A stretch of DNA of 64,000 nt, taken from contig WRHM01000009.1 in assembly GCA_009783265.1 (NCBI GenBank), positions 29,339 to 93,338 on the forward strand. Direction: 5' to 3'. This document shows positions 3,440 to 50,855 of this stretch, piece by piece. Positions within the stretch are counted from its first letter, which is position 1; every line of letters begins with the position of its first letter. Position numbers and translations under genes: made by a program. The DNA is from Oscillospiraceae bacterium. GTDB lineage: Bacteria; Bacillota; Clostridia; Oscillospirales; WRJC01. The notes below the pieces were generated by a model. The model made no database searches. It worked only from the letters and a program-made list of their open reading frames with translations, and was not told the DNA's origin.

Positions 3440-3468
3440 TTGACAAGCTGAAATTTTTGTGTTAATAT
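3440..3468 (+). promoter_or_regulatory. Sigma-A type promoter (TTGACA-17-TAATAT)
   Basis: Exact -35, 17-nt spacer and near-consensus -10, about 30 nt upstream of the small ORF at 3499. Confidence 0.65.
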
Positions 3469-3498
3469 ATCCTACAATAATTATTCGGGAGGCGCAGA

Positions 3499-3591
3499 AT
3501 GTTGACTGATTTTGTTAAAGTTAATTCTGTTATTATAATAATCAGCATTATTGAGATTAGCAATAGTGCCGTTTTGCGTTGTGCTGAATAA
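3499..3591 (+). CDS. 30-aa Ile-rich small ORF (MLTDFVKVNSVIIIISIIEISNSAVLRCAE); leader peptide or small hydrophobic peptide
   Basis: GGGAGG RBS 6 nt upstream of the ATG, a consensus promoter upstream and an intrinsic terminator 24 nt downstream. Too short for the supplied ORF track. Confidence 0.45.
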   Translation: MLTDFVKVNSVIIIISIIEISNSAVLRCAE

Positions 3592-3614
3592 GGGTGTGTG
3601 TGAAACTTCAGGAA

Positions 3615-3645
3615 CCCTTGCGGCAAACGCCGCAGGGGATTTTTT
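3615..3645 (+). terminator. Intrinsic terminator/attenuator between small ORF and XRE-cupin gene
   Basis: cccttgcggc-aaac-gccgcagggg stem (one bulge) followed by TTTTTT. Confidence 0.6.
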
Positions 3646-3711
3646 AGTTTATATAGATTTATAATATTATAAAACAACAACAACAAAATTAAAAGTTTAG
3701 GAGGAATAATT

Positions 3712-4382: not shown

Positions 4383-4411
4383 AAAATACGAAAAGAGGTT
4401 AATTTAATATT

Positions 4412-6103
4412 ATGCTTATGTATGAAAAATATATAGGGAAAAACAGGGATGATTTCACGTCATACGACGATGTTATGCAAAACTTTAAAATCAAATATAA
4501 CGACGATTTTAATTTCGCGTATGACGTACTTGACGAACTGGCGCGAACACAACCGGATAATTTATGCATGATGTGGATCTCAAACGAGGGCGAAGAAAAA
4601 GCTATATCGTTTGCCGAAATGGCGAAATATTCAGATAAAGCCGCGAATTATTTTAAGTCTCTCGGGATTCGCAAAGGCGATTTTGTAATGCTCGTACTAA
4701 AAAGAAGCTATCTTTTCTGGTACTGCATGATGGGTCTGCATAAAATCGGAGCGGTCGCGGTTCAGGCGGCGCACTTGCTGACAAAAGACGATTATATATA
4801 CAGGTGCAACGCGGGCAATATAAAAATGGCGGTGATTACCGGAGATAATAACTGCACAGAGGCTTTCGACGGAGGAGAATCAGAATATGAAACAGTCGAA
4901 ATAAAAGCCGTGACAAAACATAAAAAAGCCGGAAGCGGCTGGCTGGATTTTGAAGCGGGGCTTGAAGCCGCGTCAGAAATATGGAAACGTCCGGCGGGAG
5001 AAAATAACACCAAAGCGACGGATATGATGATTATGTCGTTTTCGTCCGGCACGACGGGTTATCCCAAAATGGTAGCGCATGATTATACTTATCCGTTAGG
5101 ACATATAGGAACGGGAATATTCTGGCACAGAGTTATAAAAGGCGGCCTGCATTTCACTATTTCAGATACAGGCTGGCTTAAATCGCTCTGGGGCAAGATG
5201 TACGGCCAGTGGCTCGGCGAGTCCGCTGTCCTGACTTATGATTTTGAAAAGTTTAACGCAAAAGATATACTTGGCGTTATGGAAAAATATAAAGTCACTA
5301 CTTTTTGCGCGCCGCCAACTATGTACAGGCTTATATTAAACGAAGACGTGGCTTATTATGATTTATCAGGGCTTAAACACTGCTGCGCGGCTGGGGAGGC
5401 GTTGAGCCATGATCTGTTCAGCAAATGGCAGGCGCTTACAGGGCTTAATATATACGAGGGGTTCGGGCAGACCGAAACGACTTTGTGCTGCGCGACTTTA
5501 TACCCGTTCACCGAGCCTCGCCCAAGCGCGATGGGCATGACTGTTCCGGGATATGACATGATAATAGCAGATGCCGAAGGCAACAGCGTCGCCGCAGGCG
5601 TAACGGGAGAAATCTGTATCAGGGCTGAGTCGCACGAAAACCGTCCGGTCGGGTTATATATGGGCTATCACAAAAACGAAGAAGCCACGCAAAATTCATG
5701 GCACGACGGACTGTTTCATACCGGAGACACGGCATATCGCGACGAGCAGGGATATCTATGGTATGTCGGGCGCAACGACGATATTATAAAATCCTCAGGT
5801 TATCGTATAGGGCCTTTTGAAGTCGAGAGCGTATTATTAAAACATCCGGCGGTCGCCGAAGTCGCTGTAACAGGTGTGCCCGACGAGATACGCGGATTCA
5901 GCGTAAAAGCTACGATAGTTCTTGCGAAAAATTACACGCCGTCGAAAGAACTAATAAAAGAATTGCAAGATTTTGTGAAAAAGACCACCGCGCCTTATAA
6001 ATATCCGCGGGTTATCGATTTTATCGACGAATTGCCCAAGACTATAAATGGCAAAATCCGCAGGGTTGAGATACGCAATAAAGATATGAGTAGCGTGAAA
6101 TAA
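4412..6103 (+). CDS. AMP-forming acyl-CoA synthetase (medium-chain/ACSM-like, AMP-binding family)
   Basis: AMP-binding signature MSFSSGTTGYPKMV, plus YGQTE-like EGFGQTET, GDTAYRDEQGYLWYVGRNDDIIKSSGYRIGPFEVE and the C-terminal PKTINGKIRR. Confidence 0.9.
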   Translation: MLMYEKYIGKNRDDFTSYDDVMQNFKIKYNDDFNFAYDVLDELARTQPDNLCMMWISNEGEEKAISFAEMAKYSDKAANYFKSLGIRKGDFVMLVLKRSYLFWYCMMGLHKIGAVAVQAAHLLTKDDYIYRCNAGNIKMAVITGDNNCTEAFDGGESEYETVEIKAVTKHKKAGSGWLDFEAGLEAASEIWKRPAGENNTKATDMMIMSFSSGTTGYPKMVAHDYTYPLGHIGTGIFWHRVIKGGLHFTISDTGWLKSLWGKMYGQWLGESAVLTYDFEKFNAKDILGVMEKYKVTTFCAPPTMYRLILNEDVAYYDLSGLKHCCAAGEALSHDLFSKWQALTGLNIYEGFGQTETTLCCATLYPFTEPRPSAMGMTVPGYDMIIADAEGNSVAAGVTGEICIRAESHENRPVGLYMGYHKNEEATQNSWHDGLFHTGDTAYRDEQGYLWYVGRNDDIIKSSGYRIGPFEVESVLLKHPAVAEVAVTGVPDEIRGFSVKATIVLAKNYTPSKELIKELQDFVKKTTAPYKYPRVIDFIDELPKTINGKIRRVEIRNKDMSSVK

Positions 6104-6120
6104 AAATATTTCATATCCGC

Positions 6121-6149
6121 TTGACATCTATGAATAAATATGATATAAT
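6121..6149 (+). promoter_or_regulatory. Consensus sigma-A promoter (TTGACA-17-TATAAT) with no protein gene downstream
   Basis: Perfect -35 and -10 with a 17-nt spacer. Drives the candidate sRNA. Confidence 0.7.
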
Positions 6150-6155
6150 AGGGTC

Positions 6156-6290
6156 ACAAATAATTGAGAGGGTATGCAACACCCTCTCGCGTACACTGGC
6201 GGTACGGCTAAACTCGATTAAACTAAAATAGTCTAATGCGAAAAAATAGACAGCACCTTTAGCTCGGGCGGTCTATTTTTTCTTGTTTTT
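6156..6290 (+). ncRNA. Candidate about 135-nt sRNA (antitoxin-like), 3' end antisense to the small ORF 6273-6365
   Basis: Bounded by a consensus promoter and a bidirectional terminator (atagacagc...gcggtctat + T-run). Contains the internal hairpin gagagggt-atgcaac-accctctc. No ORF with an RBS. Confidence 0.5.
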
Positions 6291-6365
6291 TATCGTTACG
6301 TAAATTGATATTCCGGTAACGACTATTGAAACAATAGTCAAACAGAGTGTCAATACTTCCAACAT
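6273..6365 (-). CDS. 30-aa hydrophobic peptide MLEVLTLCLTIVSIVVTGISIYVTIKNKKK (type I toxin-like)
   Basis: GGGGG RBS 7 nt upstream of the ATG and its own consensus promoter. Single predicted TM helix with a polybasic C-terminus. Stop codon lies inside the shared terminator. Confidence 0.55.
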   Translation of the reverse strand: MLEVLTLCLTIVSIVVTGISIYVTIKNKKK

Positions 6366-6435
6366 CGACCAACCCCCTTCCGGCTTTCAGCCTTTAGAGT
6401 TCAGCCTTTGTCCACCGCCCCGTGTACTTAGTTAA

Positions 6436-6464
6436 ATTATACCAGAAGTTATAATAAAAGTCAA
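6436..6464 (-). promoter_or_regulatory. Consensus sigma-A promoter (TTGACT-17-TATAAT) for the small hydrophobic ORF
   Basis: Read on the minus strand as ttgact-tttattataacttctgg-tataat. Gives a 5' UTR of about 64 nt. Confidence 0.7.
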
Positions 6465-6495
6465 CTATAAGTTATATGTTTTTGAATATATTGCC

Positions 6496-6545
6496 AACGC
6501 CCGCAAAAGTTTACAAATATTTTTGCAGGCGTTGTTTTTTATTTT
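6496..6545 (+). terminator. Second plus-strand intrinsic terminator beyond the toxin promoter
   Basis: aacgcccgcaaaa...ttttgcaggcgtt 13-bp stem (one mismatch) plus a long T-run. No plus-strand gene precedes it except the sRNA unit. Confidence 0.55.
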
Positions 6546-6823
6546 ATTTTTTATGCTATAATATCTACGAAAAGAATTATTATGTACGCAGTTTGATTTA
6601 AGGCATAGTGCGAAACGAATTTATATAATGAACGGTATAGTTTTGACAATTTTTGGGGTGTTTTTACGGTTCTCTTTTATATTACAGCCTATGTTATATT
6701 AGCAGGATTTTTCGTTATCGAAAAATTTTTGCGTAAAAAGAGTGGAATATATCATTAAAAATGCCGACGAAACCGGATTATATATAGTTTCGCAATCGGC
6801 TAAAATAAAAATTTAATAGTGAG

Positions 6824-6833
6824 GGAAATTTAT
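6824..6833 (+). repeat. Cassette 5' core motif GGAAATTTAT (copy overlapping the SBP start codon)
   Basis: Same 10-mer as at 11156, 59355 and 30050 (rc). Confidence 0.5.
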
Positions 6834-8331
6834 GTTAATTAAAAAACTTATTTTTGCGATTATAGTTGCTTGTATAATTTTCACAGTATCATGCGGCGAT
6901 TCGAATAATCAAAATGTCAATGGCGATTCAATATCTAAAACTGATAATACGAATCCTGAAGAAAAAAACGAAGAAACAGGGGAGATTGCCGAAGCGCGCG
7001 TACTGCCCGATTTGCCGGAGCAAAACTACGGCGGATATAAATTCACATGGCTGGCATTTGATTACGGAGTCAGTCATCCCGGCTCTGTCAGTCAATTCCC
7101 GCGTGAACTTGTGGCAGAAGAAGGAGACGGCGATATTATAATCGACGCTACATACAGAAGAAATCTGACTATATCCGAAAAATACGGCGTGGAATTTGAA
7201 ATGATTACAACGACTAACGAAAAAACCACTCTTAATAAAGCGGTCAAAGCGGGTGACGATATTTATGACGCGGCGATGATTTTCAACAATAATGCGCCGG
7301 GCGTTATGTCAGCCGACCTGCTTCTCGACACAAGCAAGCTGACATATGTAGACTGGGACAAACCATGGTGGGATTCCGCAATAAAAGCAATATCAATAGC
7401 CGGCAAAAACTTTTTTCTCGCCGGAGATATAATGATATTGGACAAAGAAGCCATTAACGTTCTGTTTTTCAATAAAAAACTGATGGCGGACAACAACATG
7501 GAACTTCCGTATCAATCGGTTTTGGACGGGAAATGGACGTTTGACAAATTAGACAGCTATATCAAGGATTTTTCGAAAGATTTAAACGGCGACGGAGTAA
7601 TAGGCAAAGGCGATATGCTGGGGCTTTATATTATGAGCGACGCGTTTCATGCGTTTTATGTCAGCGGAGGCGGGCTTCTCGCGGAGAACGACAGGAACGG
7701 CATACCTCAGCCGACGTTTGGTTCGGAGCAGAGCATTTTGGTCATGGATAAAATAGCCGACGTTCTATTCGGAAAAGAATATGTCACGAATTTTCATACA
7801 AACCAGTGGGGTACGGAATGGGATATGTACGCATCGTTCAACGAAGGCAGAATGCTTACGATGTGGGGGCGTCTGTACGTCCTTGATTCTCTTAGAAATA
7901 TGGACGACGATTTCGGGATACTGCCGCTGCCGAAATACAGCGAATCTCAGGAAAAATATTACAGCGATGTAAATTCTTATTCAGGATACATGATAGGGAT
8001 TCCCAAAAGCGCGTCAAACCCCGAAAGGACAAGCGTAATACTCGAAGCGCTCGCGGCTGAAAGCAGATATACCCTGCTCCCGGCGTATTATGACATTACT
8101 TTGCAGAGGAAATTTACCCGCGACGAAGAATCCGGGGCAATGCTTGATATATTATTCAGCACTACAGTATACGATTCTGGCGGAGCGTACAATTTCGCGG
8201 ACACATGGATTCAAATGTCTGGTTTATGCGGTAAAGAAGACAGGAATTTTGCTTCGTGGTGCGAAAAATACGAATTAAAAGTACAGCAGGCAATAGATAA
8301 AATGGTCGCACAGGTCGAAGCTATGGAATAA
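6832..8331 (+). CDS. ABC-type extracellular solute-binding lipoprotein (carbohydrate type), orphan
   Basis: Lipobox IFTVSC. Size and composition are typical of sugar SBPs. No permease or ATPase genes are adjacent. Confidence 0.7.
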   Translation: MLIKKLIFAIIVACIIFTVSCGDSNNQNVNGDSISKTDNTNPEEKNEETGEIAEARVLPDLPEQNYGGYKFTWLAFDYGVSHPGSVSQFPRELVAEEGDGDIIIDATYRRNLTISEKYGVEFEMITTTNEKTTLNKAVKAGDDIYDAAMIFNNNAPGVMSADLLLDTSKLTYVDWDKPWWDSAIKAISIAGKNFFLAGDIMILDKEAINVLFFNKKLMADNNMELPYQSVLDGKWTFDKLDSYIKDFSKDLNGDGVIGKGDMLGLYIMSDAFHAFYVSGGGLLAENDRNGIPQPTFGSEQSILVMDKIADVLFGKEYVTNFHTNQWGTEWDMYASFNEGRMLTMWGRLYVLDSLRNMDDDFGILPLPKYSESQEKYYSDVNSYSGYMIGIPKSASNPERTSVILEALAAESRYTLLPAYYDITLQRKFTRDEESGAMLDILFSTTVYDSGGAYNFADTWIQMSGLCGKEDRNFASWCEKYELKVQQAIDKMVAQVEAME

Positions 8332-8407
8332 ATTAAGTATATCCCCGATATTAAGGAAATTAATCCCATTCATTTATTAAATATTACATTATTCAAAGAG
8401 TTATAGT

Positions 8408-50671: not shown

Positions 50672-50735
50672 AAAAATAAAAAAAGCACACCAATAATGGA
50701 ACAATATTACTGTCCCACAGATGTGCGTGTAAATC
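50672..50735 (-). terminator. Intrinsic terminator forming the expression platform of the riboswitch-like leader
   Basis: GCACAUC...GGUGUGC stem followed by U7AU5. Its 5' arm overlaps the 3' strand of leader helix P4. Confidence 0.55.
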
Positions 50736-50805
50736 ACCTGCTGCCGCATTATCGCGACCCAGCCCCATAAACATTAAAATTAAAAGTTTATCGCCTGATC
50801 AGTTT
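50709..50805 (-). promoter_or_regulatory. Candidate NiCo (czcD-motif) riboswitch aptamer
   Basis: Four helices can be drawn: P1 ACUG/CAGU; P2 AUAAAC/GUUUAU; P3 GUCGC/GCGGC; P4 CAGGUG/CAUCUG. Junction strings are CUGGG, GCAGCAGG and CUGUGGGACAG. It sits between a consensus promoter and a CDF gene. Confidence 0.55.
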
Positions 50806-50855
50806 ATTTTGTACTGTAATTTATATGCAGTGCAAATAGTAGCCCTATATTTATT

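Follow-up and report, generated by a model that had tools for sequence, protein, structure and literature searches.

We describe a 373-bp block in the 3' end of an acyl-CoA synthetase gene that carries two convergent candidate transcription units, one for a 30-residue hydrophobic peptide and one for a noncoding RNA, and that has, in our judgement, about an even chance of being an autonomous accessory module resembling the type I toxin-antitoxin systems. The block, here called the cassette, lies in a stretch of 64,000 nucleotides (nt) from an uncultured Oscillospiraceae bacterium (assembly GCA_009783265.1, contig WRHM01000009.1, positions 29,339 to 93,338), referred to as the window, in whose coordinates positions are given unless another locus is named. 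A type I system is plausibly the best single explanation of the anatomy, and the presence or absence of both units together, as one block, fits an accessory, selfish module.

The cassette was delimited by comparison with a collinear relative, L084 (Ga0082212_10000729), whose flanking genes are 78-85% identical in nucleotide sequence to those of the window and which keeps the same neighbourhood (a cellulase gene, a cupin/XRE regulator, the synthetase, an N-acylglucosamine 2-epimerase and a gene of the enolase superfamily). In the alignment, window 4391-6111 corresponds to L084 2984-4736 and window 6481-6626 to L084 4734-4879, and window 6112-6484 has no counterpart. In L084 only about a dozen bases at most separate the synthetase stop codon from the counterpart of window 6481-6626 (89% identity), a block common to both that holds a second terminator and an extended -10 element. 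Because L084 lacks exactly window 6112-6484, the alignment marks out both convergent units as one discrete 373-bp block that is gained or lost as a whole. Insertion appears the simpler reading than loss, since L084 shows an ordinary gene end, although the direction is unprovable from only two states.

Searches with the synthetase, covering one genome per species together with metagenomes, gathered 160 loci whose names suggest termite and other gut communities. Among these relatives L084 is the only one to keep the downstream synteny; in L004, L005, L085-L104 and L164-L166 the sequence 3' of the synthetase is unrelated to that of the window. The synthetase protein recurs unchanged on contigs from JGI 3300002505 and ENA ERZ27257305, the downstream binding protein also retrieves a contig from JGI 3300002504, and the cassette is 100% identical in these three independent samples. 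All known copies being identical, no substitution pattern can be read and selection is not measurable.

The alignment also bears on a claim of the original prediction, made from the letters of the window, that a second plus-strand terminator would end antisense transcripts reading through the toxin gene. Such a terminator is present and would act in this way, but it is not a designed part of the module: because it lies directly 3' of the synthetase stop codon in L084, we assign it by sequence to the synthetase gene as its own ancestral terminator, displaced by the insertion. Since the cassette lies between the synthetase stop codon and this terminator, synthetase transcripts must read into the region of the plus-strand small RNA (sRNA), whether or not the sRNA has its own promoter firing. 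For the same reason, the case that the original prediction had set against itself, a plus-strand RNA that is only the 3' untranslated region (UTR) of the synthetase mRNA, cannot be cleanly told apart here. The terminator hairpin itself (CAACGCCCGCAAAAG...TTTTGCAGGCGTTG and a T-run; window 6495-6545, L084 4748-4798) recurs behind other genes in a related genome (L166 7615-7692 and 5622-5698) with 89% and 73% identity, and from its sequence behaves like a dispersed terminator repeat in the lineage.

The minus-strand unit centres on a peptide with the size, transmembrane (TM) segment and charged C terminus looked for in a type I toxin: it has 30 residues, a best 19-residue hydropathy of 2.3 and four lysines among its last six residues. 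When 1130 start/stop combinations of 20-60 amino acids (aa) were screened in the six frames of the window, four had a TM stretch with a basic tail (at least three lysines or arginines in the last six residues), and only this open reading frame (ORF), counted with two adjacent starts, combined these with a Shine-Dalgarno (SD) sequence (cut-off at least 5/6). Under a codon-usage model trained on 37 long ORFs it has a log-odds score of +6.2, the best of the six frames and at the 23rd percentile of true coding windows; off-frame windows score as high or higher in 0.16% of all cases and in 3.4% of those without stops. Gene callers differ at the locus, one having picked a different frame and another having called nothing. 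A 37-aa ORF in another frame, given by the JGI gene caller, was rejected because its TTG start abuts the SD without spacing and its codon score is -0.8, as against +6.2. A lipoprotein signal peptide was rejected on inspection, LTLC not being a lipobox and a basic n-region being absent.

Around the start of the ORF, the predicted ensemble has the UG of the start codon and the SD core largely engaged in base pairs, with pairing probabilities of at least 0.6-0.99 for the SD core. The leader also holds a tandem 10-nt repeat (two copies of AAAGGCUGAA at 14-nt spacing, 6386-6409), one copy of which forms a GGCU-GAA-AGCC hairpin. Two further hairpins lie within the ORF (6293-6343), one with the perfect stem GACUAUUG-UUU-CAAUAGUC and one of the form CGUUAC...GUAACG; both can form on each of the two strands and contribute to a regional folding that is unusually strong.

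On the plus strand, the promoter begins 18 nt past the synthetase stop codon, and the RNA starting from it would run to a U-run at 6276-6281. The predicted fold of this RNA (minimum free energy -40.2 kcal/mol, z -3.9) opens with a hairpin (hairpin 1), continues through a small hairpin and a single-stranded stretch rich in A and U, and closes with the terminator. Read on the minus strand, hairpin 1 is followed by AAUUAUUUGU and has a terminator-like score (6188-6166); in this model it could stop read-through of the toxin mRNA just before the sRNA start. The possibility that the plus promoter serves the downstream binding-protein gene was ruled out by the two strong terminators that lie between them and by a conserved extended -10 element (6554-6562) that follows those terminators. 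The candidate sRNA also contains a 15-codon ORF (MQHPLAYTGGTAKLD; 6174-6221, plus strand), whose AUG falls in the hairpin 1 loop, just 1-2 nt past an SD-like GAGAGGG; this ORF is probably not translated, and a dual function of the sRNA may be considered.

The two units meet in a single intrinsic terminator, which includes the stop codon (TAG, 6275-6273, within the stem) and the last three lysine codons of the ORF and folds with -19.0 kcal/mol on the plus strand and -19.9 kcal/mol on the minus strand; a simple terminator scan limited to loops of 3-8 nt missed it, which we attribute to its larger apical part. The overlap of the predicted sRNA and mRNA is perfectly complementary over 41-50 nt and spans the stop codon and the last three to four codons. 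When the predicted RNAs are co-folded, an unbroken duplex forms across the terminator, better by about -52 kcal/mol than the two folds taken separately. The apical loops, of 8 nt each, are complementary to one another, and both contain YUNR-type tetranucleotides (CUAA in the mRNA, UUUA in the sRNA), motifs that are frequent by chance. The positions of all elements are collected in Table 1.

Table 1. Elements of the cassette and its immediate surroundings, in window coordinates.
Feature	Position	Strand	Remarks
Acyl-CoA synthetase ORF (AMP-binding)	4412-6103	+	From the ORF list; host gene of the cassette
373-bp cassette	6112..6484		Present in the window strain, absent from collinear L084; boundaries +/- about 3 nt
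sRNA promoter, TTGACA-17-TATAAT	6121..6149	+	12/12 matches; TG-extended -10
Candidate antisense/antitoxin RNA	6156..6283	+	About 128 nt, ends predicted; noncoding
Hairpin 1, GAGAGGGU-loop-ACCCUCUC	6165..6189		From promoter/terminator scan and fold prediction
Left arm of imperfect inverted repeat	6191..6215		Alignment p 0.005; 23-bp closing helix; duplex p 0.03
Bidirectional intrinsic terminator	6240..6283		12-bp stem between A6 and T6, structured apex
30-aa ORF, MLEVLTLCLTIVSIVVTGISIYVTIKNKKK + TAG, candidate toxin	6273..6365	-	One predicted TM helix, KNKKK tail
SD, AAGGGGG	6379-6373	-	7 nt before the ATG at 6365
5' UTR, 64 nt, predicted	6366..6429	-	Tandem AAAGGCUGAA repeat and SD
Right arm of inverted repeat (5' end of toxin mRNA)	6397..6427		Same tests as left arm
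Toxin-mRNA promoter, TTGACT-17-TATAAT	6436..6464 (6464-6436)	-	11/12 matches; TG-extended -10
Second plus-strand terminator	6495..6545	+	-20.4 kcal/mol and U-run; host context, outside the cassette

This layout is largely the one that the original prediction had drawn. The two promoters, the 64-nt 5' UTR, the strong ribosome-binding site, the 30-aa peptide with one TM helix and a lysine tail, the bidirectional terminator containing the toxin stop codon and a 3' overlap of about 50 nt were all recovered, and the plus-strand noncoding transcript, which it had put at about 135 nt, is found as a unit with a somewhat shorter inferred length of about 128 nt.

How much weight the promoters deserve can be judged from the window as a whole, in which 19 sites on the two strands match the consensus at 11 or more of 12 positions. 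Most of these sites stand just upstream of long ORFs and one precedes a NiCo riboswitch, and for this reason we take it that the organism uses this consensus and that matches to it are informative; for two such sites to fall within 373 bp the Poisson P is about 0.006. This clustering, together with a combination of ORF features found once among 1130 candidates, the stable terminators and the clean boundaries of the cassette, makes it improbable that the block is without function, whether as a set of chance products of AT-rich intergenic DNA or as a decayed remnant, although such an explanation would sit easily with an orphan that brings no conservation data and whose known copies, all identical, give no measure of selection. 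The riboswitch (nickel/cobalt; 50708-50812, minus strand, 71 bits) has a perfect TTGACA-17-TATAAT promoter at 50884-50856.

If, as we infer, both promoters fire and the RNAs end where predicted, the cassette could work as follows. The minus promoter would give an mRNA of about 190 nt, whose 5' UTR would partly sequester the SD and restrain translation and which would encode a single-pass membrane peptide of 30 aa with a lysine-rich cytoplasmic tail, presumed to be made and to be toxic. The stronger, perfect-consensus plus promoter would give the noncoding RNA of about 128 nt, to which read-through from the synthetase gene would add. Both RNAs would end in the common bidirectional terminator, their 3' hairpins perfectly complementary over the overlap, and the complementary terminator loops would first kiss, with pairing then extending to the full 3' duplex. 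Ribonuclease III (RNase III) would cut this duplex, and the mRNA, having lost its protective 3' hairpin, would decay. The RNA would in this way counteract the peptide by keeping its synthesis low, along the 3'-duplex/RNase III degradation route known from RatA/txpA, SR5/bsrE and SR6/yonT (PMC6562991). Plus-strand read-through would furthermore be antisense to the whole toxin gene, would occlude its promoter and would stop at the old synthetase terminator.

A number of observations weigh against a toxin-antitoxin pair. The complementarity is that of the shared terminator only, and the perfect duplex of 41-50 nt predicted from a convergent consensus promoter and a shared terminator is no more than the bidirectional terminator of any convergent pair would provide. 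Between the sRNA 5' part and the translation initiation region the pairing is a patchwork that does not exceed that of shuffled sequences (p 0.17); the best Watson-Crick match there, CAACACCCT against CAACCCCCT, is not significant (p 0.13), and no direct repeat links the two regions (best match CAACNCCCT). An RNA-RNA duplex prediction, which the original prediction had proposed as a check, gives a duplex across the terminator and finds no significant pairing elsewhere. Set against 37 ordinary genes, the accessibility of the initiation region comes only at the 11th percentile, a value that lends weak support to its modelled sequestration. The context of the cassette is chromosomal sugar metabolism, neither prophage nor plasmid, and many small membrane proteins with basic tails are non-toxic. 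Paralogous loci, which the original prediction had suggested looking for, are absent from the window (blastn-short, tblastn) and from about 1.2 Mb of related loci (nhmmer of the cassette), and the libraries searched hold no homologue of the peptide or the RNA, hence no support from conservation or covariation.

These libraries were diverse. Searched at both permissive and gathering thresholds, Rfam yielded no family above threshold, PreQ1, rli28 and Thr-leader being sub-threshold noise (the PreQ1 match, 21 bits as against a 39-bit threshold, lies inside the ORF and comes from the A-run of the lysine codons). The peptide gave noise against Pfam and NCBIfam (hmmscan) and against PHROGs, the matches in Pfam and NCBIfam all being at E 0.04 or worse, and an exact-sequence look-up found it not on record. 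From 1.84 billion representative proteins phmmer returned nothing at E <=0.001, a search in which a 30-aa query could find only near-identical sequences, and none of 5.8 billion protein clusters shared three 5-residue words with the peptide (query padded with X to 40 aa). Searches of phage and plasmid records by blastn and tblastn gave no match, the tblastn covering 50,697 phage records and E values up to 10 with a low-complexity filter that may reduce sensitivity, and two degenerate back-translated patterns retrieved nothing from viral contigs. As a 30-aa hydrophobic query has low statistical power and small ORFs often go uncalled, these results speak for the absence of close relatives and leave room for remote ones.

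Several of the points above are also what one would expect if the ORF were a genuine small membrane protein gene beside a convergent sRNA or 3'-UTR-derived RNA, with no toxin-antitoxin relation between them. On this view the peptide would do no harm and serve as an accessory or regulatory subunit in the membrane, the plus-strand RNA would have its role elsewhere or amount to no more than the synthetase mRNA's new 3' end, and the shared terminator would reflect economy at gene ends. An overlap confined to the terminator, no extra complementarity to the initiation region, the necessary entry of synthetase transcripts into the plus-strand RNA region and the lack of similarity to any toxin family all agree with this explanation, which we regard as possible though rather unlikely. 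It accounts poorly for a plus-strand unit that has its own perfect consensus promoter so close behind the synthetase stop codon and that travels with the peptide gene in one compact cassette, and the strong promoter, long structured UTR, convergent RNA and 30-aa TM peptide with a lysine tail together make up a typical type I layout (PMC6563280, PMC8594479).

Apart from the terminator, the two RNAs are related through an imperfect inverted repeat. The stretch 6191-6229 of the sRNA and the initial 45 nt of the toxin mRNA can be aligned in the same sense (p 0.005 in a post hoc test), with the core GTACAC-GGCGGT-AC-GGCT(A/G)AACTC-TAAA-CT(A/G)AAA; in their 5' regions the two RNAs copy one another in the same sense, the copies being inverted in the DNA, and are not complementary. 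A minus-strand transcript reading through to hairpin 1 would close on itself by a 23-bp helix between its 5' and 3' parts (duplex p 0.03). Over their whole lengths the minus RNA 6429-6158 folds with z -8.3 and the plus read-through RNA 6156-6545 with z -7.0. The repeat may be left over from the origin of the cassette, may serve as a shared site for protein binding, or may lock read-through mRNA in a fold-back. The last of these recalls hok/Sok and aapA1/IsoA1, in which the full-length hok or aapA1 mRNA is kept inert by a 5'-3' long-distance interaction: in the read-through toxin mRNA, too, the 3' extension would pair with the 5' end of its own molecule. Unlike those systems, the fold-back would be open to read-through transcripts only, the antisense RNA of the cassette lies 3' rather than 5', and there is neither a leader ORF nor homology; the p of 0.03 supports the fold-back modestly.

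In the cassette, inverted repeats nested within one another predominate (hairpin 1, the terminator, the two perfect hairpins within the ORF and the two arms, whose repeat is statistically supported), and with the very strong folding of both strands they would suit a structured, palindrome-rich noncoding element in which the ORF is incidental, such as an insulator or terminator block or the remnant of a small mobile element. Its junctions are AT-rich (TATTT / CATAT ... ATATG TTTTTG / AATATATT, with slashes at the boundaries), and the CATAT at its start and the ATATG six bases from its right end, although too short to weigh, point the same way, as does the disagreement of the gene callers. We nevertheless consider such an element quite unlikely. 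An incidental ORF would hardly have an ideally spaced SD, the top codon score of six frames and a TM segment with a basic tail unique in the window, or stop exactly at the terminator; and the further copies expected of a mobile repeat are missing from the window and the related loci, as is a clear target-site duplication at the junctions in the comparison with L084.

Among characterized type I systems, par (Fst/RNA II) of Enterococcus faecalis pAD1 and its chromosomal relatives invites the closest comparison, although the cassette sRNA, at about 128 nt, is longer than RNA II, which has a length of about 65 nt. Like the cassette, par has convergent promoters, one bidirectional intrinsic terminator whose complementary loops can bring the RNAs into first contact, a toxin of roughly 30 aa that joins a TM helix to a charged tail, and a 5' structure over the SD, and its chromosomal copies are placed between metabolic operons (PMC7472228). 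The direct repeats DRa/DRb of par let RNA II cover the initiation region, adding further complementarity, in a second region, at the SD and start codon (PMC7472228), whereas in the cassette they are absent, the repeated segments are inverted and the RNAs share sequence rather than pair. In the Fst/Ldr signature a Trp separates the TM helix from the charged tail, and the helix itself carries a P/D/S/T-xxx-G motif (PMC7472228); the cassette peptide has Tyr22 and no Trp, shows S13-xxxx-G18 rather than xxx-G, and matches no Pfam family, hence no Pfam Fst model.

More generally, the sizes of toxin, mRNA and antisense RNA fall within the published type I ranges (20-60 aa, 150-400 nt and 60-200 nt, respectively, with the antisense RNA on the 3' side in Gram-positive families; PMC8594479), and the hydrophobic N terminus and lysine-rich C terminus of the peptide fit the type I toxins of Clostridia and Bacillus, which have the same two features (PMC6563280, PMC6562991). 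The arrangement of txpA/RatA and bsrG/SR4, to which the original prediction had likened the locus, is retained here in architecture. The Bacillus subtilis systems bsrE/SR5, bsrG/SR4, txpA/RatA and yonT/SR6 have toxins of 29-59 aa (BsrE 30 aa) and antitoxins that act by a 3' duplex and RNase III-triggered decay, contact starting at the terminator loop (PMC6562991), and like the cassette they have a convergent sRNA that overlaps the 3' end of the toxin mRNA. The likeness does not extend to sequence, no significant similarity to the B. subtilis type I families having been found with Rfam, Pfam, NCBIfam or tblastn of phages, nor to the extent of the overlap. The B. subtilis RNAs are longer (antitoxins 100-222 nt, mRNAs 255 to >450 nt) and overlap over a larger part of the ORF (PMC6562991, PMC8594479); in the cassette the antisense RNA lies on the 3' side and overlaps the 3' part of the ORF, as in TxpA/RatA and BsrG/E/H, but takes in the stop codon and the last three to four codons only, the overlap being that of the terminator. 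The B. subtilis systems reside on prophage-like elements, whereas the cassette stands among chromosomal genes of sugar metabolism.

Within the class Clostridia, CD0956.2/RCd10 of Clostridioides difficile and its relatives have, as the cassette has, convergent and overlapping toxin and antitoxin genes. Their toxins combine a hydrophobic N terminus with a lysine-rich C terminus, in a conserved family that occurs on phages and plasmids of C. difficile, and homologues of these toxins measure 30-56 aa and are common in phages (PMC6563280). Unlike the cassette, the C. difficile systems share a long complementary region and lie in prophages or next to CRISPR arrays, and tblastn of phages and plasmids (E up to 10, under the filter that may reduce sensitivity) detected no similarity of the peptide to CD0956.2-type toxins. 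Judged by its sequence, the cassette is closest in layout to par/Fst-RNAII and bsrE/SR5, yet a member of no known family.

A bolder form of the type I interpretation, to which we give little credence, would make the cassette a new design: a portable, near-palindromic 373-bp plug-in for the 3' UTR of a host gene, in which host transcription feeds the antitoxin strand and the antitoxin carries a same-sense copy of the toxin leader (6191-6215 as against 6427-6397). This copy could serve as a decoy for a leader-binding factor or as a 5'-3' fold-back lock in read-through transcripts, and such a design could bring together, in a Gram-positive lineage, terminators of the par type and fold-back control of the hok type.

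Two features of the surrounding DNA were also noted. Downstream of the cassette there is a second difference between the window (6627-8400) and L084 (4880-5490), the former having a gene for a 499-aa extracellular solute-binding protein (6832-8331) and the latter a different, shorter gene; the promoter region with the extended -10 (6554-6562) is kept in both despite the differing downstream gene. Upstream of the cupin/XRE regulator and the acyl-CoA synthetase lies another 30-aa ORF (3499-3591, plus strand; MLTDFVKVNSVIIIISIIEISNSAVLRCAE), with a promoter-like site and the SD GGGAGG. Its peptide (region 3440-3650 of the window) is conserved in two relatives (MMTDFKNKSIIIIISIIEINNNAVLRCAG; ...IIIGISIIEISNNAVLRCAE; L165 2235-2324 and L166 2254-2313), and it is followed by a GC-rich hairpin and T-run (about 3613-3646). 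From its sequence it looks like an isoleucine-rich leader peptide with an attenuator controlling the regulator-synthetase operon.

Compared with the original prediction, this analysis newly sets the boundaries of the cassette, assigns the second terminator to the host gene instead, shows how far the complementarity reaches and brings out the same-sense repeat. The cassette is a new orphan among candidates of a familiar kind and stays a prediction, and its practical value is modest, such candidates being common (over 2000 new toxin ORFs have been proposed in the literature, as cited in PMC8594479), the host uncultured and relatives for comparative analysis lacking. Descriptions of clostridial type I systems come for the most part from C. 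difficile, other species contributing in-silico candidates (PMC6563280); if confirmed, the cassette would represent a sequence-unrelated type I toxin-antitoxin family from Oscillospiraceae, with uncultured relatives apparently from termite guts. As the presence/absence polymorphism shows, a module of this kind can be as small as about 370 bp and still carry two promoters, a terminator, a peptide and an RNA, and it can lodge behind a gene's stop codon but ahead of its terminator and take over the 3' end of that gene. This placement would offer a simple, testable case in which the transcription of a metabolic gene is coupled to the supply of an antitoxin.

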